This document shows positions 30,607-42,679 of a stretch of 64,000 nt of DNA, one piece after another. Each line of letters opens with the position of its first letter. The stretch's first letter is position 1. Source of the DNA: Alphaproteobacteria bacterium. GTDB taxonomy: Bacteria; Pseudomonadota; Alphaproteobacteria; Bin95. Position numbers and translations under genes: made by a program. Under the pieces are notes generated by a model, which was given only the letters and a program-made list of their open reading frames with translations, made no database searches and was not told where the DNA came from. The DNA is taken from NCBI GenBank assembly GCA_965205265.1, contig CBDBGH010000003.1, positions 3,616,001 to 3,680,000 on the forward strand, given 5' to 3'.

Positions 30607-30726
30607 CTCGTCCCGCGATGCCGGCCGGCTGTCTTCCCTGTGCATGAAGCGTCTCCCGGATTGGAACATTCAGGCAACATATAGCCTGTCGATGCGCGTC
30701 GGCCAAGCATGCGGCCGGGCTGACGG
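30607..30726. repeat. ~120-bp direct repeat, copy 2, with LexA-like box at 30664-30678
   Basis: Aligns with 27676-27795; carries only the first ~12 codons of the small gene. Confidence 0.85.
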
Positions 30727-30839
30727 GCCCGGAGCCGGACGCCGTCAGGCATGCAAGCCTGTTGCAGGCGCGCCTGAAACAAGGTTCATGGGGCGGCGCC
30801 GAACGACACCTGCCGCTGACAGGGACAATCGGGCCAGAA

Positions 30840-31549
30840 TGTGCGGTCGATTCACCCAGCGCCTCTCATGGGCGGAACTGCACGAGCTGATGAACCTCAT
30901 CGGCCCGCCCCGCAACCTGGAGCCCCGCTACAACGTCGCTCCGGGCCAGGATGTCGCCATTGTCCGCGCCGCGGAACACGGATCGCAGTCGGGCGACGGC
31001 CGCCGTCTCTCCATGCTGCGCTGGGGGTTGGTACCCGCCTGGTCGAAGGATCCCTCCATCGGCAACAGGCTCATCAATGCGCGGTCCGAGACGGTCGCGG
31101 AGAAGCCGGCCTTCCGCGCCGCATACCGGCGCCGGCGCTGCCTGGTCCCGGCCGACGGCTTCTACGAATGGCAGCACCGGGGCGCGACCCGCCAGCCCTG
31201 GCTGTTCGGCCTCCGCGGTGGCGCGCCCTTCGCGTTCGCCGGCCTCTGGGAGCGCTGGACCGGATCGGAGGGTCCGGGGCCGACAGGTTCGCTCTTCGGC
31301 CCGGAACCCGGCTGGCCGGTTGAGACGTTCACCATCCTCACCACCGCCGCCAACGAGACCGTGGCGCAAGTCCACGGCCGCATGCCGGTCATCCTGCCCC
31401 CGGACGCCTGGGGTGCTTGGCTTGCGGGCGAGGACATTCCGCTCGGCCCCTGTCCCGCGGATGAAATGCACGCGCATCCGGTGAGCACGCTGGTCAACAA
31501 GCCCGCCAATGACGATCCACGCTGCGTCGAGCCGGTCTCCCTCTGCTGA
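30840..31549 (+). CDS. SOS response-associated peptidase (SRAP/YedK/HMCES family)
   Basis: MCGRF N-terminus, RYNVAPGQ, INARSET, RCLVPADGFYEW, HGRMPVIL. Confidence 0.93.
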
Positions 31550-32194: not shown

Positions 32195-32825
32195 GGTGAA
32201 GCTCCAGAGTGTTCGGAACCCGCGTCAACGGTTCCTGCCGGTGGCGTGTCGAGTGCGGCTTCCGGCGATGCTCCTTCGGGAAGGGCATGCAGGCAAGGAC
32301 ATCGTGCCCGGTCTCGTCCAGGAAGGTAGCGAACCTGGGCGCCCCGGCCCTGAGCCGGACCGCGACCTGTCGCCACTGGACGCCAGCGCATTTCTTCTCT
32401 GTGTTCCTCTTTTTTTCTCAATGAGGGGTTGCAATGGGAAAGAAAATCTAACATAACGGGAAGCGGACGGCGCAAGAGGAGTCAGCTCTTGCACCGCCCT
32501 GACCAAGGATCTTCTGGAGAAAGATCGCATGGCTGCTCACGAACTTAGCACGGCCCCGACGCCGGCTGTCAGCCCATACGACCGTCCCTGGCAACCGGCG
32601 CGAACCGGGATTCCGCCCGGCATTTGCGCCGCCTCCCGGCGCGCGCCCTCCGGCCGCGCCCGGCGGTCATTGCGCCCGGAGACAGTCGGGGCTCACGCCG
32701 CCCGCCCGCCCGCGGCGCATTCGCTGAATCCCTGAGTCCCCGGCGCCGTCCGGCGTCCGGCGATGACCGGCAACGTCCTGCGCTTCACAGGCGCAGGCGA
32801 CAGGCTGTGGAACTGTGAGGAGACC

Positions 32826-33704
32826 ATGACCGACAGCGACTTCACCCTGCCGGAGGCCGCACCCGCCGTCCGGCTCGGGCCGAACCCCGACAACGGCCGC
32901 GACCTGGTGGTCGGCGACGTCCATGGCCATTTCGCCACGCTGCGCCATGCGCTGGCCGAACTGGAGGTCGGCGCGGGCGACCGGCTGTTCTCGCTCGGCG
33001 ACCTGGTCGACCGCGGCCCCGACTGCTTCCAGGCAAAGGCCTGGATCGAGGGTTCGGCCCTCCCGGCTCTGGGGCCGGGACAGGCCCCGGCGCGGTTCGA
33101 CCTTGTCGTCCGCGGCGATCACGAGCAGCTGATGCTCGACGCGCTGGGCCCGCAGGTCTCGGCGGCATACAGGCCGCTCTGGCCGGCCGACTGGAACCTC
33201 TGGCGTCTCAATGGCGGAGACTGGTGGGAGGAGGGGGACCCGGTCGACCCCGCATCGGGGGGAGTCTGCCCCGGACTGCGATCCGGGAGGACAGGCGATG
33301 CCCGGTCCTGGGCCGTGGCGCTCGCGGGGCTGCCCTTCGCGGCCCGCATCGAGACGTCGCACGGCCCGGTGGGCCTCGTGCATGCCTGCCCGGTCCACCG
33401 CTCATGGGAGGCGCTGGAAGAGGCGCTCCGGCAGGACGGGCCCGACGGCCGCCGCACGCGCACGCGCGCGCTCTGGAGCCGCGTCCATCACCGGACCCGC
33501 CGGCCGGAGACCGACGGGCCGGTGGCGGGCGTGCGCGCCGTCCTGACCGGCCACACGCCCATGCCCGGGCCCGTCTGGCGCGCGAACGTCCTCGATATCG
33601 ACACCGGTATCGTCCGCCAGGGCATGCGCCGCCTCACTGTCGCACGTATCGACACGAAGGAGATCGGGACATGGACCTTCGACCGGGTGCCTGGCGAGAC
33701 GTAA
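32826..33704 (+). CDS. PphA/lambda-type Ser/Thr metallophosphoesterase (uninterrupted copy)
   Basis: GDVHG, GDLVDRG, RGDHE (Asn replaced by Asp), GLVHA, TGHTP, DIDTG; RBS GAGGAG. Confidence 0.88.
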   Translation: MTDSDFTLPEAAPAVRLGPNPDNGRDLVVGDVHGHFATLRHALAELEVGAGDRLFSLGDLVDRGPDCFQAKAWIEGSALPALGPGQAPARFDLVVRGDHEQLMLDALGPQVSAAYRPLWPADWNLWRLNGGDWWEEGDPVDPASGGVCPGLRSGRTGDARSWAVALAGLPFAARIETSHGPVGLVHACPVHRSWEALEEALRQDGPDGRRTRTRALWSRVHHRTRRPETDGPVAGVRAVLTGHTPMPGPVWRANVLDIDTGIVRQGMRRLTVARIDTKEIGTWTFDRVPGET

Positions 33705-33910: not shown

Positions 33911-34957
33911 TCAGCAGCAATTGTCGTTGGGATGGTCTTGGTCGTCGTCTTCCCAATCGGCTTCTTCCTTGCCAGCAGCTCGACGCCGCACACGTCCAGC
34001 GAACTCTCGGTAGTGGATTTTCCCGTCTGCGTAGTCGGCCAGGAGGTCTTGGTAATTGTCGAAGCGGGTACGTGCATCTGGAAGCTGCTCGGGCAAGGTC
34101 GTGCCGATGAAACTCAAGAGGCGGGCGTCAGGCGCGTCGCCGACTCGGATGTCGTTGAAGCCGAGCGAGTCTTGGCGCATTGCGCGGTCAGCCAGACCCC
34201 TATCGGTGACGTGATAGAGCTGGTTGAGGGTTTGATAGAGAATTACGCCGCACTCGCCGAGGACATCGAAGGTAGCGCGCGGAAAGCGGCGAGCGACGAG
34301 GATCGGAACGCAGTTCAGCGCGACACACTTTTCAAGTAGCCGCTTGACTTCGTCCGTATCGGGGTAAATCCACCTACGGAAGCTCTTTGCCTCGACACCG
34401 GCAAACCCCGCTGTGCGATGCAGATAGAGGAAGTCGAGCAGACGTCCCTCGGGTATTGCGCGGCCCCCGATGTGGGCGGGTGGTTCCTCCTTGCGGTAGC
34501 GGCTCTTTCGTTCTGCGACGGACGGGTCGAAATCGGGAAATCGGCCGAAGTAGGGAGCATTGGATTGGGCACCAAGTGCGCGGAAGATGGCAAGTTCCAG
34601 GCACTGGCCCCGACGATCCGAAACGGCTGGTTTAGAAAGTGCACGGAGAACGCGCCTCAGCGTGGCGAGGCGTGCTTGTACGCCTGTTTCCGGGGCATCG
34701 GGAAGGTGGAACCACGACGGATCGTCGTTGATGCCGACAATCTCCACTAGGTCGCCATCGCGAACGAGGATCTTGCGGGCCATGCCCAATATATGAGGCT
34801 CCAGCGGCTGGGCGCCCGTGTCGCAGATCTCGTGTTCGAGCATCCGCGCTGTCATGACGACTCGACGGGAGAGGACGTCGCGCAGCCGAGCCTTGGCGAG
34901 CGCGAGGTCGGCCGGATCCGACTCCGGGTGCGATGACGTTGGGGGGCGACGCGCCAT
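33911..34957 (-). CDS. PD-(D/E)xK restriction-endonuclease-like protein
   Basis: G..LELAIF helix, GRLLDFL...GVEAKSFRRWIYP; RBS GAGGGAGG. Confidence 0.6.
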   Translation of the reverse strand: MARRPPTSSHPESDPADLALAKARLRDVLSRRVVMTARMLEHEICDTGAQPLEPHILGMARKILVRDGDLVEIVGINDDPSWFHLPDAPETGVQARLATLRRVLRALSKPAVSDRRGQCLELAIFRALGAQSNAPYFGRFPDFDPSVAERKSRYRKEEPPAHIGGRAIPEGRLLDFLYLHRTAGFAGVEAKSFRRWIYPDTDEVKRLLEKCVALNCVPILVARRFPRATFDVLGECGVILYQTLNQLYHVTDRGLADRAMRQDSLGFNDIRVGDAPDARLLSFIGTTLPEQLPDARTRFDNYQDLLADYADGKIHYREFAGRVRRRAAGKEEADWEDDDQDHPNDNCC

Positions 34958-35042
34958 GGAATTGGAGCCTCCCTCAGGATAGTGAGTCAACACAGCGATT
35001 ATATCTTAATTGAATGGTCTTCCAATCACACTGTGCAGTTAC

Positions 35043-35076: not shown

Positions 35077-35271
35077 ATGGCACGAAAACCTACGATCGAG
35101 GAGCTGGAAAGCATCCTGGACGACGAGGAGGACATCCCGATCGAGATACTCCCCAACGGCGAGATTCGGGCGCTTGGAGGTAGCGACGCGGCGGAGCGGA
35201 ATTTCCAGAAGCCGCTGACGATGCGTGAGGACCTCGGCGGCGAATACGGACGGCGAGGTAACCAAGCATGA
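35077..35271 (+). CDS. 64-aa acidic peptide, candidate non-canonical protein modifier/substrate
   Basis: MARKPTIEELESILDDEED...RALGG...REDLGGEYGRRGNQA; GAAGGA upstream; ATGA overlap with the E2 gene. Confidence 0.7.
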   Translation: MARKPTIEELESILDDEEDIPIEILPNGEIRALGGSDAAERNFQKPLTMREDLGGEYGRRGNQA

Positions 35272-35642
35272 ATCTGGCGCGAATCCGCGAAGACATCGCC
35301 GCTGCGCAACGGTATTTCCAATATGTTGAGGGCCGGGCGACGCCGGAAGGTGGCTTGATGGCGCTCATCGCGCTGCAGACCAGCGGGCGCCTCTACACCC
35401 TCGGCGTGTCGTTTCCAGATTCGTACCCGAACGCGATGCCCGAGGTACATGTCAGGAAACCGTCGCTGTCATACTCACCGCACCAGTACCTGCACGACCG
35501 GATCTGCTACCTCCACCCGCACATGTGGAACCCGGGTCGTCACAACCTGACCTTCGTCATACAGCGCGCCGCGAAATGGCTCGGCAAGTATGAGGTGTAC
35601 CGGAAGACGGGGAAGTGGCCGGGGGCAGGTTTGGACCATTGA
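35268..35642 (+). CDS. prokaryotic E2/UBC-like protein
   Basis: FPDSYPNAMPEV...SPHQY...RICYL...WNP pattern matches UBC fold YP..PP/HPN/ICL/W.P. Confidence 0.8.
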   Translation: MNLARIREDIAAAQRYFQYVEGRATPEGGLMALIALQTSGRLYTLGVSFPDSYPNAMPEVHVRKPSLSYSPHQYLHDRICYLHPHMWNPGRHNLTFVIQRAAKWLGKYEVYRKTGKWPGAGLDH

Positions 35643-35646
35643 GACG

Positions 35647-36246
35647 ATGAGCAACACTCAACGCCAGGCGACTGTGAAGCTGATCGAGGGGCAGGCATCT
35701 GGCCCGCGGTCCAACGATACGCACATCGAGTTCAAGCCCCTGCCGATGATGGCGCTGCGCAGCAGCCCAGGGGAGGTGCTCGACGAAGTGTCGAAGGAGG
35801 GGGCCGCCTACCTGATCGAACGCAACGGGCAGCAGAAAGCGTGTCTGGTTCCCATATCGTGCTTTCTGCCGGATATCCAGCGATCACGCGTAACGGCGGA
35901 ACTCGACAGACTCGAGGACTCCGTGGAGAAGTACCGCGTGGCAATCAGCGCCGAGCGGGAGATGCAGTTCCTTTTCCGCGAATTCAGCGGCGACACGCGA
36001 TTGGAGGTGGCGGTGACGCTGCCCCATGGCTACCCCAACAAGGCGCCCGTGGTGACGGCTGAGCCGATCGAGGAAGGCTGTCCGCACCGGTGGCCAGACG
36101 GGACGTTATGCCTCTATGGCGCAGTGGCGGTGTGGAACCCGGGTAGGCACGACGTGATGCACGCAGTCGCGCTCTTCCGGCGGTGGATCCAGCACTACAC
36201 CGTATGGCGGCAGACAACCGAGTGGCCGCGGGAGGGGTTGGAATGA
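35647..36246 (+). CDS. Phd/YefM-like domain fused to an E2/UBC-like domain
   Basis: N-terminal LRSSPGEVLDEV...YLIERNGQQKACLVP; C-terminal LPHGYPNKAPVV...CPHRWPDGTLCLY...WNPGRH. Confidence 0.75.
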   Translation: MSNTQRQATVKLIEGQASGPRSNDTHIEFKPLPMMALRSSPGEVLDEVSKEGAAYLIERNGQQKACLVPISCFLPDIQRSRVTAELDRLEDSVEKYRVAISAEREMQFLFREFSGDTRLEVAVTLPHGYPNKAPVVTAEPIEEGCPHRWPDGTLCLYGAVAVWNPGRHDVMHAVALFRRWIQHYTVWRQTTEWPREGLE

Positions 36247-37085
36247 TGACTGACGGTCTTTTTGCGAGGGTTGAGCCTCTGTTCGACGTCGACGCATTCC
36301 GGGACCAGTGGGTGCTGATCGCCGGTTGCGGGTCGGGCGGCGGCCAAGTAGCGCTGCAGCTGGTCATGTCGGGAGTCAGAAAGTTCATCCTGGTGGACAT
36401 GGACGAGGTCGCGGTCGAGAACATCATCAGACATGTGTGCGGCCTCCGTTATGTGGGCTGGCGCAAGACCGCGGCGCTCGCCGACGTCCTCAAGGATCGC
36501 AACCCGGAGGTCGAGATCAGGTCGTTCAACGAGGATGTTCTCGAATGGCCGGGCTTGGAAGACGAGGTTGAGCGGGCGAGCGTGGTCGTGATCGGAACGG
36601 ACAACGAGCCGAGCCGCTACCGGCTGAACGAAGTATGCGTGAAAACGGCGACGCCGTTCACGGTCGGGCGCGTGTTCACCCGCGGCATCGGCGGCGAAGC
36701 CTACGCATACCGGCATGGAAGCACCGGATGTCTGGCCTGCCTGGAGGGGGTTCTGGAACGCACCCGGTTCCGGGAAGGGGTGCGCGAGATCGACCTCGCA
36801 ACGGAGGAAGAGCGCCAAAAGATGTACGACCTTGAAATCGAGGAGATCAAGGACTCGCCAGGCTTGTCGGTGGACATCGGCTTCATTGCCGCGTTTCACA
36901 CGCGGCTCACGCTGGACGCACTCGGTGAAATGGCCGACGAGCGGCCGAAGTTCATGACGCCGCTCGAGGAGAACTACCTCGTGTGGGGCAACCGGACTGT
37001 CCACCCGTTCTCGAAGAATTTCCAACTGCAGCGGATGTCCTTGCAGCCGCAGAAAGGCTGCAATGTCTGCGGAGGGCAGGTATGA
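36243..37085 (+). CDS. ThiF/E1-like adenylyltransferase
   Basis: IAGCGSGG, VDMDEV..ENIIRH, GTDN..SR, CLAC and C-terminal CNVC zinc ligands. Confidence 0.92.
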   Translation: MMTDGLFARVEPLFDVDAFRDQWVLIAGCGSGGGQVALQLVMSGVRKFILVDMDEVAVENIIRHVCGLRYVGWRKTAALADVLKDRNPEVEIRSFNEDVLEWPGLEDEVERASVVVIGTDNEPSRYRLNEVCVKTATPFTVGRVFTRGIGGEAYAYRHGSTGCLACLEGVLERTRFREGVREIDLATEEERQKMYDLEIEEIKDSPGLSVDIGFIAAFHTRLTLDALGEMADERPKFMTPLEENYLVWGNRTVHPFSKNFQLQRMSLQPQKGCNVCGGQV

Positions 37086-37996
37086 ACGCGATGAGAGACG
37101 TACGTTCGGTCAGGGTCGAAATTGCCGCGCGGGCCTTGGAGGCCGTTTTCGAGGAGTGCGACCGCTACGACAGCGACGAGACGGGCGGGCGGATGGTGGG
37201 GCACTTCTCGCTGGAGCGGAACACGCTGGTGGTGAGGGCGCGTGGAGTCATAGAACCGGGGCCTAACGCCAAGCGGACCAGCGCCAGCTTCTTCCAGGAC
37301 GGTGACTACCAGACCGAGATCTTCCGGCGGATCGAAGCCAAGGACCCGACGGTCGAGCACCTGGGCAACTGGCACACGCATCATGTGAACGGGTATCCGA
37401 ACCTGAGCGGAGGCGACGTGGCAACCTATCGCCGCATCGTGAACCACGAGCTGCACAACCTGGACTTCTTCTACGCGTTGCTGGTGACGGCGCGCCGTGA
37501 GGGACGGTCGGGACTCGGCCGTTACACGGTGCGGCACTACGTTCTGTTCCGCGGAGACGACGGGGTCTATGAGGTAGATCCGGGGAATGTCCGGATAACG
37601 GACGAGGCGACGATCTGGCCGAAAGACGCAGCCGGGCCGGGCGACGGGCTCGAAACCGACCCTCAACGAATGAAGCAGGCTGCTGCCATCCGCGCGCACG
37701 ACCTGCAGGTCCTCAAGGTCATGTACCCTTCGCTGAGTCCGCGACAGTCGGCGCGGTCGGAGATGTTCTTCTGGAAGGGGCCGTTGCCGCTGATCGATGG
37801 TACTGAAGCGGGGCTGCGGATCCTGGAAGTGGAAGACGATGAGGGGCTTGCCTACTACCTGAGGGTGAGCCCGGCCTCGGCGGAGGCGAGGGAGCTGTAC
37901 GAGACGCGCTTCCGAAGCGCGAGCGAGGCAGTGCGCACGCTGGAGGTGAGCTTGGACCGGGCGATCTACCGGTCTGCCGCTGGATCGGAGGGCTGA
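37082..37996 (+). CDS. JAB/MPN metalloprotease with a C-terminal extra domain
   Basis: ETGG, LGNWHTHH...NLSGGD (E..HxH..S..D JAMM motif). Confidence 0.88.
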   Translation: MNAMRDVRSVRVEIAARALEAVFEECDRYDSDETGGRMVGHFSLERNTLVVRARGVIEPGPNAKRTSASFFQDGDYQTEIFRRIEAKDPTVEHLGNWHTHHVNGYPNLSGGDVATYRRIVNHELHNLDFFYALLVTARREGRSGLGRYTVRHYVLFRGDDGVYEVDPGNVRITDEATIWPKDAAGPGDGLETDPQRMKQAAAIRAHDLQVLKVMYPSLSPRQSARSEMFFWKGPLPLIDGTEAGLRILEVEDDEGLAYYLRVSPASAEARELYETRFRSASEAVRTLEVSLDRAIYRSAAGSEG

Positions 37997-38826
37997 TGAC
38001 GATGGAGATATTGACGCTCTATGCGGGTCAGGGGAATTTCGCGGTTGTCCGCCATGGTGGGCAGGCAATCGTGGTGGATACCCGGCGCCCGGCCGAATGT
38101 TCGGACGACATCGCGTCGAAGGTGAGCCGATTTCTGAGGGGGCGGGAACTGGTGGGCATCGTGTTGACGGGGTTCGACGACGATCACGCGGACCCGGACG
38201 GACTCGACTGGCTGCTGGAGGATTATGCGGCGGCCTGGGTGATGTATCCCAAGTACTACAAGGATACGGAAAACACGCAGCGGGTGTTCAACGTAATCCG
38301 CAAGCATGAACGACGGCGCGAGAACACGCACAATCCACTTGAGCGTGTGTCGGTTCGCCTCGACCGGCTAGACTCACGGTACCTCGACGAGCTGTCCGAT
38401 GAGTTCGACCTGGAGCTCTTTTCGCCGCACATCGAGGACATGGACAACTCGAACAACTGCAGCATCGTACTGAAGATCGAAGGAGTCGGACCAGACGGAT
38501 TCGGATACCTCGTGACCGGCGATACCGAGAACCCGCGCTGGGACAGGATTGTGGCTCTGTTCGACGATGCCTTGGCGGCGGACGTCATGGCTGCACCGCA
38601 TCACGGGTCCAAGAATGCGGCGCATCCGGGCATGGCCCTGGCGGTTTCGCCCGACACGGTGCTGATCAGCGCCGGCATCGACAATCAGTACGGACACCCG
38701 GACGCGAAGGCGGTGGCGCTCTATTCGCGCGTCGCCGAGCATGTGTTCCAGACCAACATCCGGACAGGGATTTCGTGGCTCACGAGGCGCGTGGGTAGTG
38801 ATTTCCCGACGCAAAGGGTGGCGTAA
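37996..38826 (+). CDS. ComEC/Rec2-like metallo-beta-lactamase-fold hydrolase
   Basis: GQG, IVVD, TGFDDDH, NNCSIV, LVTGD, APHHGS, ISAG..NQYGHP; TGATG overlap. Confidence 0.85.
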   Translation: MTMEILTLYAGQGNFAVVRHGGQAIVVDTRRPAECSDDIASKVSRFLRGRELVGIVLTGFDDDHADPDGLDWLLEDYAAAWVMYPKYYKDTENTQRVFNVIRKHERRRENTHNPLERVSVRLDRLDSRYLDELSDEFDLELFSPHIEDMDNSNNCSIVLKIEGVGPDGFGYLVTGDTENPRWDRIVALFDDALAADVMAAPHHGSKNAAHPGMALAVSPDTVLISAGIDNQYGHPDAKAVALYSRVAEHVFQTNIRTGISWLTRRVGSDFPTQRVA

Positions 38827-39093: not shown

Positions 39094-40236
39094 ATGAAGG
39101 TCGCGCTCGCACTCTCCGGGGGCGGCGTCCGAGCGGCCGTGTTCCACTGTGGCGTGCTGCAGCGCTTGGCGCTGGACGGCTTGTTGGAATCGACGGCGTT
39201 TGTGTCGACGGTCTCAGGGGGCAGTCTGGTCGTGGGGTTAATCCTCTGCCAGAACGGCCATCAATGGCCGGGCAGCAAGGAGTTTCTCGAAGCCGTGCTG
39301 CCGAGCGTTAGGACTCGGCTCACGACGGCGACCCTGCAATGGTCCTATGCGTGGAGGTCGGTCGTGCTCCCCTGGAGACTTGCCCGCGGGCGTGCGCACG
39401 TTCTCGCGGGCCTGCTTGAAGCCCAATGGGGAATCTGCGGGACGATGCAGGACGCACCTGAGACACCCCGTTGGATGGTGAATGCGACCTGTTACGAAAC
39501 AGGGCGGAACTGGCGGTTCAGCCAGCGACGAATGGGCGACTACGCTACGAACTATGTGTTGAAGCCGACGACGCCAATCGCCGATGCGATCGCCGCTTCG
39601 GCCGCCGTGCCGGGGGCAATCGGACCGCTTGCGATCCGGTCGGCCGACTACGATTGGCACCGCTACGAGAGTGGACAGCTTGTGGCGAGCTCGACGCCTG
39701 CAAAGCGGTACGCGTTGTGGGACGGTGGAGTGTACGACAACTTGGGCGTGGAATCACTGTTCAAACCCGGCGGCGGATTCCGTGACGGCTTCGACTTCCT
39801 GGTGGTGAGCGACGCATCGGCACCGCTGTCCCTGGACATTGGGAAGGTCAAGCGAATGTTCATGCCATGGCGGCGAGCGCTTCGTCTGGTGGACGTGGCA
39901 ACGGAGCAGGTGCGGGGGTTGCGGGCGCGGTCGCTGATCGCCGAGTTTCAGCGAGCCCCGGCAGCGGGCGTTTATGTAAGGATTGGCAACACCGTCGAGA
40001 CGGTTTACGGCGCCGTACGCCGAGAGCCTCCCGCCGGGGAGCATCTCGGGGAGATCGACGTCGCCCGCGCGGAGCGTTTCAAGACGACTCTCCGACGACT
40101 TAGCGGGGAAGAGTTCGAACTCTTGAGGCGACATGGATTCGAGGTGGCGAACGCGACGTTGGCAACGCGGCAGCCCGAGCGGTTTTCGTACAGGGTGTTG
40201 TCCGGCGCGCCGCTTCCACGCCGATCAGCACCATAA
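39094..40236 (+). CDS. patatin-like phospholipase
   Basis: LALSGGGVRA, STVSGGS nucleophile elbow, ASAAVPG, DGGVYDNLG. Confidence 0.9.
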   Translation: MKVALALSGGGVRAAVFHCGVLQRLALDGLLESTAFVSTVSGGSLVVGLILCQNGHQWPGSKEFLEAVLPSVRTRLTTATLQWSYAWRSVVLPWRLARGRAHVLAGLLEAQWGICGTMQDAPETPRWMVNATCYETGRNWRFSQRRMGDYATNYVLKPTTPIADAIAASAAVPGAIGPLAIRSADYDWHRYESGQLVASSTPAKRYALWDGGVYDNLGVESLFKPGGGFRDGFDFLVVSDASAPLSLDIGKVKRMFMPWRRALRLVDVATEQVRGLRARSLIAEFQRAPAAGVYVRIGNTVETVYGAVRREPPAGEHLGEIDVARAERFKTTLRRLSGEEFELLRRHGFEVANATLATRQPERFSYRVLSGAPLPRRSAP

Positions 40237-40334: not shown

Positions 40335-42218
40335 TCAGAGCTTGAGCGCGCGCCCCTTGCGGCGGACCTTCTTCGGGGTGGGAATCTTCTCGCCCGGCCA
40401 GAGGATGTCGGCATAGGCGAGCGGGCGGTCGGCGAAGCCGAGCCGCATGGCGGGCGTGGCGCCGTCCACGCCGGTGTGGATGAAGTTGTTCACCGCCCGG
40501 AAGACGTCGAGATATTTCTGCACCATGTCCGGCCTGTAGGGCGCATAGCCGTACCAGACCTGCTGCCAGCGCCCGCTCGCCGTGTCGATCGGGCGCTCCA
40601 GGGCCGAGAGGAACCGCCGGGTCAGCTGGAAGACATTGTCCACCTGCGCGACCGAGGCCGCGAGATAGAGCCGGGCCCTGTCGTCGAGCTCCATATCCGG
40701 GCTCTCCGTGATCCAGCGGACCTCCTTGCCGGGCTCCTGGGCGGTCGGCACCGGGTGCCGCAGCCAGCCGTCCTCGGGCAGGCCGTCCGCCCGCAGGGCG
40801 GTCCGGATCATCTCGAAGCCGAGCTCCTCCTCCGTCATGCCCTCAAGATGTCGAGCCCGGGCGAAGGCCCGCATCTGCCTCTCGGTCTCGCGGTAGATGC
40901 GGTTGCGCTCGTCGATCGGGCAATCCTTGGCGTAGCGCACCAGGAAGCCCTGCGCGCGACCCTCGCAGACCTGCTCCTGGAAGGCGCACATGAAGGACGC
41001 GATGGTCGAGAGATGCTGGTCCATCGACAGCTGGAGCCGCTCGACGCCGGCGCCCTTCAGGATCTCGCGCAGCACGAACATGTGCCCGAGCGTCCGGTAG
41101 CCGGTCTTCACCAGCATGCCGGAGCGCAGCATGGTGTCGCGCAGCGGCCCCTGGCCCGGCACGATCTCCATCTCCGCCACGTCGGCATAGGCATTGGCCG
41201 CCCGGAAAGCGTCCTGGATGTCGCCGACGGCCTGTTCGGCCGCCCGGGCGCCCATGCGGCGCTGGCCGGTGCGCCCGCTGCGCATCTCGTCGCCGGCGAG
41301 CCAGAAGCGGGCATATCTGCGGAACGCCTCCTTGCGGGTCAGGTCGCCCAGTTCGGCCGACTCCTGGTTGACGTCGAACGGGTCGAAGCGCGGATCGTGG
41401 TTCACGTCCAGTTCGAGGATGAAGCGCGAGCCGGCATCGACGCTGCAGCAGGAGGTCACCTCGACCGTGCGGCGCTGGACCTTGCGCGGCCAGTTGACCA
41501 TGAGCGACTGCGAGTCGAGGGCGATGTCCATCTCGGCCGGCAGGCGCCGCGCGCCGGTCAGGAACGCCCGTGTGACGGCGCCGTTCATCTCCCGGCAGCG
41601 CCGGTGGATGAAGTCGAAGACCGTGTAGTAGTCCTTGCAGCTGTTGAGCCCGGCCCCTTCCACCGTGCGGCGCATCGGGGACTTGTTGGCGATTCGAGAG
41701 AGCACATCGGCGGCGAGCGACTGGTTCTTCGCGTGGATCCTGGGAGCCTTGCGCGAGACGAGGATGCGCCGCAGGCAGGCCTTGCACTGGTAGTAACGGT
41801 TCTCCGGCGTCTTGTAGTAGCCGCGCCTCCAATAGCGATCCCGATGCTCGCCGACCGAGAGGCCGAAATTGGCGCAGCCCTCAGTCTTGCAGGCGAAGTG
41901 GTGCTCCAGCGGCCGGGCATAGTCGGAGATGCGCTCGATCTCCTCGGCGATAGCCGCGTTCGAGCGGATGGCGCCCTTGCCCCTGCAGACCTTGCACTCG
42001 ATGGCGGGTTCCTGGCCCTTGGCGGTCGAGTTCAGCTTGTACCGGAGATCGCGGTCCCGGCTCGGCCCGGTCTTGCCGCGCTTCGTGCGCGCCGGCACGC
42101 CGAAATTGGCGCAGCCCGGCGTGCGGCAGTGGTTGACCTGAACCGGGAACGGTTCTCCGAGGAGCCTGGCATGGGCGATTTCGGGGACCCGGAGCGAGCG
42201 GCGGGGCGTTGAAGCCAT
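40335..42218 (-). CDS. large zinc-finger transposase-like protein (IS1/IS1595-like insertion element protein)
   Basis: Repeated C..C motifs (CRTPGCANFG, CKVC, CKTEGCANFG, CKAC), IALDSQ, SMDQ, VDNVFQ..RR, TPAMRLG. Confidence 0.65.
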   Translation of the reverse strand: MASTPRRSLRVPEIAHARLLGEPFPVQVNHCRTPGCANFGVPARTKRGKTGPSRDRDLRYKLNSTAKGQEPAIECKVCRGKGAIRSNAAIAEEIERISDYARPLEHHFACKTEGCANFGLSVGEHRDRYWRRGYYKTPENRYYQCKACLRRILVSRKAPRIHAKNQSLAADVLSRIANKSPMRRTVEGAGLNSCKDYYTVFDFIHRRCREMNGAVTRAFLTGARRLPAEMDIALDSQSLMVNWPRKVQRRTVEVTSCCSVDAGSRFILELDVNHDPRFDPFDVNQESAELGDLTRKEAFRRYARFWLAGDEMRSGRTGQRRMGARAAEQAVGDIQDAFRAANAYADVAEMEIVPGQGPLRDTMLRSGMLVKTGYRTLGHMFVLREILKGAGVERLQLSMDQHLSTIASFMCAFQEQVCEGRAQGFLVRYAKDCPIDERNRIYRETERQMRAFARARHLEGMTEEELGFEMIRTALRADGLPEDGWLRHPVPTAQEPGKEVRWITESPDMELDDRARLYLAASVAQVDNVFQLTRRFLSALERPIDTASGRWQQVWYGYAPYRPDMVQKYLDVFRAVNNFIHTGVDGATPAMRLGFADRPLAYADILWPGEKIPTPKKVRRKGRALKL

Positions 42219-42679
42219 GGCTCTGCCTCTTGTAATGAGGCGGTCCATCGTAACGCCGGAGGGGCTTCCTGTCAAGCCTGAATTAGAACATTGGCAAGTA
42301 AAAACAATGTGTTATCCGGGTTTCCTATCGACCCCCAGAGAATTCAAAGGAACTTTTGTGTCAGTTTATGACTGCTAAAATATGCCATATTATCAATGCA
42401 TTATATCGTATTTTGACACAGAATTTTCATCGGCTATCTCTCCGCCATAGCGGATGCTCCTTTTGTGGGAACCTGCTGTGAACTCGATACTCAACGTATT
42501 GATTTTCCGCCATTAACTGCCGCCGTTCAGCACCGCAACATGTTGCTTCGGAACGATTTCACGGGGTCAACGGCGGTGTCGAACAACATGGAGCGAGGCG
42601 CGCAAGCGCCGGATCGCGCCGGCCCGGGGTTTCGGTCGTGGCGCAGCGTCATGACGTGAACGCGAACCCGGTCTTCAGT

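Follow-up and report, generated by a model that had tools for sequence, protein, structure and literature searches.

How could an E1-like enzyme charge an E2 with a ubiquitin-like tag if it lacks the cysteine that forms the thioester? The question is raised by a gene cassette in a 64,000-nucleotide stretch of DNA from an alphaproteobacterium (GTDB lineage Bin95; contig CBDBGH010000003.1, positions 3,616,001 to 3,680,000), referred to here as the window. Six tightly packed + strand genes at 35077–38826, about 3.8 kb, code for a small protein, two E2-like proteins (E2a and E2b), an E1, a JAB peptidase and a metallo-beta-lactamase-fold (MBL) protein, with start/stop overlaps at the E2b/E1, E1/JAB and JAB/MBL junctions. 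Among bacterial ubiquitin-like conjugation systems, this cassette is a variant of its own. We propose tentatively, at a little under an even chance, that it is a six-gene conjugation system in which the tag passes from an ester on Tyr195 of the E1 to Cys80 of E2a. The features on which the argument turns are:

35077–35271, + strand: small protein, 64 aa, C-terminus ...LGGEY-GRRGNQA, candidate for the conjugated tag (a mini-modifier), assigned by conservation and the E1 complex model
35268–35642, + strand: E2a, 124 aa, E2/UBC-like, with Cys80 in RICYL (codon 35505–35507); PADLOC E2
35647–36246, + strand: E2b, 199 aa, a Phd/YefM-like N-terminal region followed by an E2-like domain, with Cys155 in TLCLY (codon 36109–36111)
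36243–37085, + strand: E1, 280 aa, consisting of one adenylation domain of the ThiF type that has a Zn site; a catalytic-Cys domain is absent; Pfam ThiF
36741–36863, + strand: E1 crossover loop, residues 167–207, Cys-free, with Tyr195 (codon 36825–36827) and KDSPG (203–207)
37082–37996, + strand: JAB/JAMM peptidase, 304 aa, whose additional C-terminal half has no assigned type; Pfam Prok-JAB, PADLOC JAB
37996–38826, + strand: ComEC-type MBL protein, 276 aa; Pfam Lactamase_B, NCBIfam ComEC_Rec2

The E1 and its crossover loop

The E1 possesses the ThiF fold and the ATP/Mg-binding residues of a canonical E1, but neither a loop Cys nor an inserted Cys domain. It matches Pfam ThiF (E 2.3e-28) and the PADLOC CBASS-type E1-E2 model (2.7e-27), and its best PDB sequence match is MccB (9.6e-18). 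The AF2 model (pLDDT 89.6) has UBA5 as its top Foldseek match (6.5e-18), followed by ThiF, MoeB and MccB, and both the fold and the adenylation residues agree with these minimal homodimeric E1-like enzymes. The E1 sequence that follows CLAC, LEGVLERTRFREGVREIDLATEEERQKMYDLEIEEIKDSPG, contains zero Cys, and the 41-residue loop carries no inserted domain. A sequence-only reading of this DNA had pointed to the Cys-free loop, and translation of 36243–37085 bears it out. Its premise, a thioester Cys in canonical ThiF enzymes, holds only in part: ThiF has Cys184, while MoeB and MccB, which have no E2 partners, work without a thioester Cys and without an enzyme-bound acyl intermediate.

In a single protein such a gap would be unremarkable, as the chance of a 41-residue Cys-free stretch at 7 Cys per 280 residues is ~0.35; it is regarded as a genuine trait because it is conserved across the family. 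Orthologous loci were collected from genomes (3) and from metagenomes (the best 80 of 180 stretches encoding a relative), and the window together with these 83 loci yields 81 distinct E1 sequences, with the orthologues 57–95% identical to the window E1. None of the 81 has a Cys at positions 167–209, and among 121 close database homologues a sporadic Cys occurs at loop position 4 in two. Y195, K203, D204, S205, P206 and G207 are each present in 81/81, as are the adenylation residues R9, R63, K75 and D120 and the adjacent H64. The loop is modeled with low pLDDT (below 50 at 184–204), as expected of a mobile loop.

Distant relatives single out the tyrosine. Searched exhaustively, the representatives of 50%-identity clusters yielded 7571 proteins at E up to 1e-3; the best 149 were taken for loop analysis, the loop could be delimited in 114, and the 113 with loops of at most 60 residues, mostly 27–41% identical to the window E1, were analyzed. 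A Tyr lies 9–17 residues ahead of the G in the loop-end xPG motif in 106 of these 113, whereas the same interval holds Phe in 6, Trp in 2 and Cys in 4. In the four Cys-bearing loops, the Cys occupies the Tyr spot: P0130 reads VCGME where its relatives read IYGME, and at offset 11–12 KKDC or KSTC is found in P0203, P0239 and P0265. As these loops align, the canonical nucleophile Cys and Tyr alternate at one loop position, and the P0203/P0239/P0265 subgroup may represent, within this clade, a branch that works by thioester.

A precedent for a tyrosine in this role comes from the bacterial Bub systems. According to the Bub preprint, every known E1 carries a Cys within its crossover loop or in an insertion there, as with Cys250 of UBA5, and Bub E1s have none; their sole invariant loop residue is tyrosine, Y370 of BubCD in Citrobacter and Y342 of BubBD in E. 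coli. Y370F or Y342F abolish Bub conjugation, and the Bub E2 uses Ser (10.1101/2024.11.21.623953). By analogy, the window cassette would operate as follows. The JAB peptidase would trim the variable tail of the small protein (here 7 residues, GRRGNQA) after Tyr57, and a homodimer-type E1 would adenylate the C-terminus of the resulting LGGEY protein. Tyr195, on the mobile crossover loop, would become acylated, forming an aryl ester as in the Bub E1, and the tag would go from there to Cys80 of E2a in thioester linkage. E2b would be an accessory, UEV-like protein whose Cys is dispensable.

The best surviving alternative is that the E1 only adenylates, that the docked E2a Cys80 attacks the acyl-adenylate directly, and that the part of Tyr195 is only to hold the tail or the E2 in position. 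In its favor, loop Cys is absent from all 81 orthologues and the E2a Cys is present in 62/62; MccB is the top PDB sequence match, and MoeB/MccB-type enzymes form no enzyme-bound acyl intermediate; and Tyr195 is not among the confident model contacts. We nonetheless judge this alternative unlikely, as it leaves unexplained the loop Tyr in 106/113 distant relatives and its substitution by Cys in four, and the Bub preprint reports that its Tyr-to-Phe mutants lost conjugation (10.1101/2024.11.21.623953). The Tyr ester is favored over direct transfer because the Tyr is kept in distant relatives, because Cys takes the same spot in four of them, and because Bub provides a precedent. The sequence-only reading, which had the adenylate pass straight to an E2 Cys, described a possible route, but it overlooked the invariant Tyr195, and direct passage is not the best reading.

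The candidate tag and the proteins that would handle it

The conserved LGGEY protein of 57–64 aa is likely the tag. It is 57–97% conserved across the loci, compared with 45–97% for E2a, and reads ...KPLTMRE(D/N)LGGEY, with L53-G54-G55-E56-Y57 invariant in 55/55 distinct sequences. Among 54 locus orthologues, 20 terminate exactly at the Tyr and the rest carry variable tails of 2–19 aa; of 37 tails, 35 start with G, S or A. Judged from the sequences, this pattern of ending at the motif or continuing into a variable tail is typical of modifiers that need a peptidase to free their C-terminus. One orthologue (L057:3891-4076) ends in a tandem motif, ...LGGEYLGGEY, as though the five-residue end were a unit. 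The small protein matches no Pfam, PADLOC, NCBIfam or PHROG family, and the ESM Atlas gave no usable match. Its stand-alone model (pLDDT 70.6, pTM 0.28) consists of one helix, a hairpin of two strands and a second, short helix, an arrangement other than a beta-grasp.

The E1 was modeled together with the tag as two copies of each, the tag truncated after residue 57; the alignments were custom-made and, like the 2+2 copies, differ from the calibration, in which the ipSAE mark was attained by 58/80 solved complexes and 2/110 mismatched pairs. The E1-tag complex has an ipSAE of 0.77 (runs 0.80/0.77/0.58) versus 0.00 for the best of three controls, and its runs have at least 68% of contacts in common, with a partner pLDDT of at least 50. 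Tag residues 19, 21–28 and 46–57 contact the E1, and on the E1 side the contacts fall at 30–33 (the glycine-rich loop), 118–120 (including the TDN Asp), 142–152, 170–173, 203–207 and the C-terminal sheet. The tag tail, residues 46–57, is placed in the adenylation site, where it touches 30–33, 118–120, 142–152 and 203–207. The model supports a tag bound to the E1 in the MoaD/ThiS manner, and by the same contacts KDSPG is read as a tail-binding element.

In 6A-MBL systems the machinery has been proposed to act on the C-terminus of the MBL enzyme, and in type II CBASS the cyclase has been shown to be such a substrate. On this reading, the C-terminus of the MBL protein would be acted on by E1 and E2 here, and the small protein would be a regulator or adaptor. 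The MBL protein (Pfam Lactamase_B 6.4e-5; NCBIfam ComEC_Rec2 2.3e-22) is encoded in 40 of the 42 loci with room for it, 24 of 51 MBL proteins end in Ala, the E1 and JAB weakly match the 6A-MBL cap2_3 model, and the discussion of the Bub paper has MBL pathways conjugating their own enzyme (10.1101/2024.11.21.623953). The MBL C-termini vary in length and sequence, with a Gly end in just 1/51, whereas the small protein has an invariant end motif with a processed-modifier pattern and a tail modeled in the adenylation site. We therefore consider conjugation of the MBL protein quite improbable.

If the acyl acceptor on the E1 is not Tyr195, it could be another residue: Ser205, Cys29, Cys66 or Cys132, each of which is found in 81/81 orthologues, and E1 residues 203–207 and 30–33 contact the tag tail in the model. 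The seven Cys of the E1 are C29 (GCGSGG), C66 (RHVCG), C132 (NEVCV), C163/C166 (GCLAC) and C273/C276 (GCNVCG), the last four forming two CxxC zinc motifs (C166, C273 and C276 each in 81/81, C163 in 80/81). Profile alignments to solved structures put C132 in a column that is Cys in ThiF (NAACV) and MccB (NKYCV), set C66 (RHVC) against the Leu of NLQRQIL (ThiF) and NLTRQVL (MccB), a hydrophobic core position, and match C29, in the glycine-rich loop, to the Cys of MccB GCGGIG. We know of no catalytic nucleophile among the Cys of ThiF and MccB at these columns. On this homology C29, C66 and C132 are rejected as catalytic Cys, and they lie outside the E1 residues that confidently contact the modeled tag tail, where a residue not named is merely uncertain. 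The sequence-only reading had foreseen that the Cys of RHVC or NEVC might sit at the active site and form a thioester; comparison with ThiF and MccB speaks against both. Ser205 comes nearest, by motif alignment, to the place of UBA5 Cys250 and ThiF Cys184, but in the 113 distant relatives its position is E in 56, Q in 19 and Ser in 8; as a nucleophile it is rejected, E or Q standing there in most of them. A covalent acceptor elsewhere on the E1 is thus very improbable. An E1 thioester is very unlikely for want of a loop Cys, so the absence of an E1 thioester, which had been suggested from the sequence alone, is well supported.

The two E2 proteins differ in how strictly they keep their cysteines. 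E2a matches PADLOC E2 models down to 4.2e-11, Pfam UQ_con at 16 bits (cut-off 27) and, in the PDB, Ubc6 (E 0.003); a weak UBC9 alignment sets Cys80 on the catalytic Cys. It has the UBC-like core with a catalytic Cys followed by W-x-P, and Cys80, His72 and W87-N88-P89 are each invariant in 62/62, after removal of six rows in which the E2a query had matched the E2b gene on truncated contigs. E2b, which shares 34% identity with its paralogue E2a across some 80 residues, matches PADLOC E2 (4.9e-8), has no PHROGs match, and carries an N-terminal region with a Pfam PhdYeFM match (E 1.1e-4, 22.3 bits) under the cut-off of 29.8. Its Cys155 column (n=64) contains C in 47, S in 13 and A in 4, and the last residue of its WNPG is Gly in 47/64 and Lys in 16/64. 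A tree of E2b groups all 17 non-Cys rows together (support 100/99), with several changes between Ser and Ala inside that clade; by this tree the E2b Cys was lost once.

These patterns bear on the suggestion, made from the window alone, that both E2s keep their Cys and might act as a relay. Both Cys are indeed intact in the window (Cys80 in RICYL, Cys155 in TLCLY), but the family as a whole does not retain the second. An obligatory E2-to-E2 cysteine relay is unlikely, because E2b has Ser or Ala throughout one 17-sequence clade while the E2a Cys and the E1 Tyr are invariant. E2b looks like an accessory, UEV-like partner with a dispensable cysteine; in the window, where its Cys is intact, it may also have a catalytic role.

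The JAB protein (Pfam Prok-JAB 8.5e-6; PADLOC JAB 2.5e-18) retains the JAMM residues E25, H98, H100, S109 and D112, each at least 95% conserved in 65 rows. Its C-terminal half, about 150 residues, has R204, D207, W231, G233, F277 and others at least 95% conserved and no family match. The last alternative, in which nothing is conjugated and an MccB-style modification of a peptide C-terminus gives a small-molecule or peptide product while the E2-like proteins serve as scaffolds, is the least credible, for although MccB is the top PDB sequence match and the substrate would be a short non-Ubl protein, the invariant E2a Cys/His/WNP and the intact JAMM peptidase are hallmarks of conjugation and deconjugation.

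Comparison with known ubiquitin-like systems

The closest mechanistic parallel is Bub Types I/II (6E/DUF6527; Ye, Gong, Chambers, Corbett), which likewise has a Cys-less E1 with an invariant loop Tyr (10.1101/2024.11.21.623953). A JAB peptidase and a sporadic, island-like distribution are also common to both. The shared Tyr lies 10 residues before P-G/P-A in two Type-I-like Bub E1s and 12 in the window E1. Several differences set the cassette apart. First, the Bub E2 uses Ser, while here E2a has Cys in 62/62 and E2b has Ser in merely 13/64, interchanging with Ala. Second, Bub tags are beta-grasp Ubls, and the candidate tag here is a 57-aa non-beta-grasp protein with no Ubl family match. Third, Bub fuses JAB or E2 to the E1, where the window has separate genes. 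Fourth, the DUF6527 (PF20137) protease BubE was found neither among the operon proteins nor anywhere in the window's genome.

Querying the PDB with the C-terminal 121 residues yielded a single chance match, and the comparison with the Bub E1s is one of loop geometry. By these comparisons, the resemblance to Bub is one of mechanism and not of family membership, and any detectable kinship of the E1s stops at the ThiF superfamily. Many E1 relatives at 30–36% identity are 390–470 aa long, with an N-terminal extension of 100–170 aa, no loop Cys and the loop Tyr kept. Relatives of 400–470 aa might be taken for Bub fusions, a notion that we discard: the extension matched no Pfam family in the five tested (P0136, P0142, P0145, P0167, P0170). 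Two further relatives have other additions, a C-terminal UQ_con-like region in P0174 and an N-terminal HerA/FtsK-like ATPase in P0193.

Several points weigh against the proposed Tyr195 ester. Bub-type loci were fetched through the DUF6527 marker PF20137, found in 17/401 genomes of the phylum at E up to 1e-3, and tblastn of the window E1 on these loci gave no match at 1e-3; BubCD chains come up only at E 0.008, against the relative P0136. Because the Bub E1s are not detectably similar beyond the superfamily, Tyr195 could be convergent with the Bub Tyr or serve another role. Much of the loop is invariant in the close family, so that Tyr195 stands out solely against distant relatives, and it lies in a low-confidence loop outside the confident model contacts. 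The complex model, for its part, had the tag cut at 57 and is blind to Tyr57 versus Gly55 as the reactive end; the job differs from its calibration in alignments and copy number, and solved E1-Ubl and MccB-peptide complexes may raise the ipSAE by likeness. To our knowledge, transfer from a Tyr ester to a Cys thioester has not been demonstrated so far. The sequence features, their conservation and the gene order are observed directly and the seat of the tail in the adenylation site is backed by a model, while the ester, the transfer to E2a, the JAB cut site and a defense role are inferred; we hold the mechanism as a tentative proposal that falls somewhat short of an even chance.

The other systems share components with the cassette and differ in their arrangement. 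Iyer, Burroughs and Aravind (2006; PMC1779556) describe type 6a as a single fused E2-E1-JAB protein beside an MBL protein; the name 6A-MBL is from van den Berg et al. 2024, as cited in PMC13276650. The domain company is the same here, E2, E1 and JAB with an adjacent MBL-fold protein. The window has four unfused genes, two of them for E2s, in place of the one fused protein; it also encodes a small protein, and the MBL C-terminus is not a conserved Gly. The matches to the NCBIfam models NF058523/NF058524 are weak, at 47 and 48.5 bits versus a cut-off of 320 and, for the MBL enzyme model, 33 versus 220. On these sequence comparisons the cassette is related to 6A-MBL, in split form, but does not belong to it.

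Type II CBASS supplies the best PADLOC matches of the E1, the E2s and the JAB, which are CBASS-type E1-E2, E2 and JAB models. The Cap2 E1 uses Cys, and E1 and E2 are unfused here, unlike in Cap2/Cap3. None of the ten neighborhood proteins scanned with Pfam and PADLOC is a CD-NTase, and the cassette is therefore not Type II CBASS. A pair of the Ubc13-Mms2/Uev1 type joins an active E2 to an inactive E2 variant, and the cassette resembles it in having a catalytic E2 beside a paralogue that lacks the Cys in part of the family; unlike that variant, E2b keeps its Cys in the window and in 47/64, and has a Phd/YefM-like N-terminal region. Bil, as described in the Bub preprint (10.1101/2024.11.21.623953), is excluded, the window E1 being a single domain with no Cys domain. 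A literature search found no account of the cassette in its split form, of a tag that ends in GGEY or, outside Bub, of an E1 of the Tyr type, though supplementary operon tables for CBASS, Bil and Bub may list the cassette.

Neighborhood, distribution and significance

The cassette has the appearance of a mobile unit with a variable surrounding. Its gene order is retained in 40 of the 42 loci with enough flank; in the two that depart from it, the small gene is not detectable. G+C at 34–40 kb is 0.605–0.637 versus up to 0.72 in the flanks, and no tRNA was found at positions 20–50 kb of the window. Two neighbors adjoin the cassette:

39094–40236, + strand: patatin-like phospholipase, 380 aa, a variable downstream partner; Pfam Patatin 7.6e-18
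33911–34993, - strand: 360-aa protein of no family, transcribed divergently

Of 41 loci with room for it, 15 have a same-strand patatin-like match downstream, and in most loci the patatin-like gene is absent or merely 25–32% identical, which makes the effector slot variable. On the opposite strand, a patatin-like gene occurs upstream in L036 (620–1750) and downstream in L041 and L058. The divergent 360-aa neighbor is present in 4 of the 83 loci (L001–L004, the closest clade) at 63–79% identity. It has no Pfam, PADLOC, NCBIfam or PHROG family and gave unnamed clusters only in the ESM Atlas, in which leads below 0.85 point to HTH/NERD/Mrr-like proteins.

Three further genes border this region. 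A 646-aa protein at 40335–42275 (-) has several CxxC pairs near its N-terminus and no match in Pfam, PADLOC, NCBIfam or PHROGs; it may be part of a mobile element bordering the island. An ORF at 30644–31549 (+) matches phrog_1599 (4.8e-57) and presumably encodes an SOS-response-associated peptidase (SRAP/YedK); its conserved region starts MCGRF, and the annotated start is perhaps too far upstream. Between this SRAP-like gene and the cassette lies a calcineurin-like metallophosphoesterase gene at 32763–33704 (+; Pfam 3.2e-8).

An E1 orthologue (E up to 1e-50) is present in 0 of 400 other sampled genomes of the phylum, and E1 copies 86–95% identical to that of the window occur in assemblies labeled Pseudomonadales, Gammaproteobacteria and Binatia. 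This scattered distribution, with close copies in distant taxa, fits a gene set carried on mobile islands. From the distribution and the PADLOC similarities we infer that the cassette is probably the gene set of an anti-phage defense island.

What the cassette adds to ubiquitin-like biology depends on Tyr195. It is possible, though on balance doubtful, that it represents a third chemical flavor of conjugation, in which an E1 that forms a Tyr aryl ester serves a Cys E2, a 57-residue non-beta-grasp tag is joined via its C-terminal Tyr, and the Tyr-type E1 is widespread. Such a cascade would be a hybrid of the all-thioester eukaryotic and all-oxyester Bub cascades, and the LGGEY protein, as a tag, would widen the scope of ubiquitin-like tags. 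The family with and without the E2b Cys is a natural experiment on the role of a second E2, and the compact, strongly conserved cassette should be easy to reconstitute, which makes these points directly testable. If Tyr195 is catalytic, Tyr-ester E1 chemistry, so far shown for Bub only, would exist in a second lineage that is not detectably related; and if the Tyr-type E1 is what most of the roughly 100 distant cluster representatives possess, Tyr chemistry would be no oddity of Bub. It would also follow that a Tyr-ester E1 can feed a normal Cys E2, which bears on how thioester cascades evolved from adenylating enzymes.

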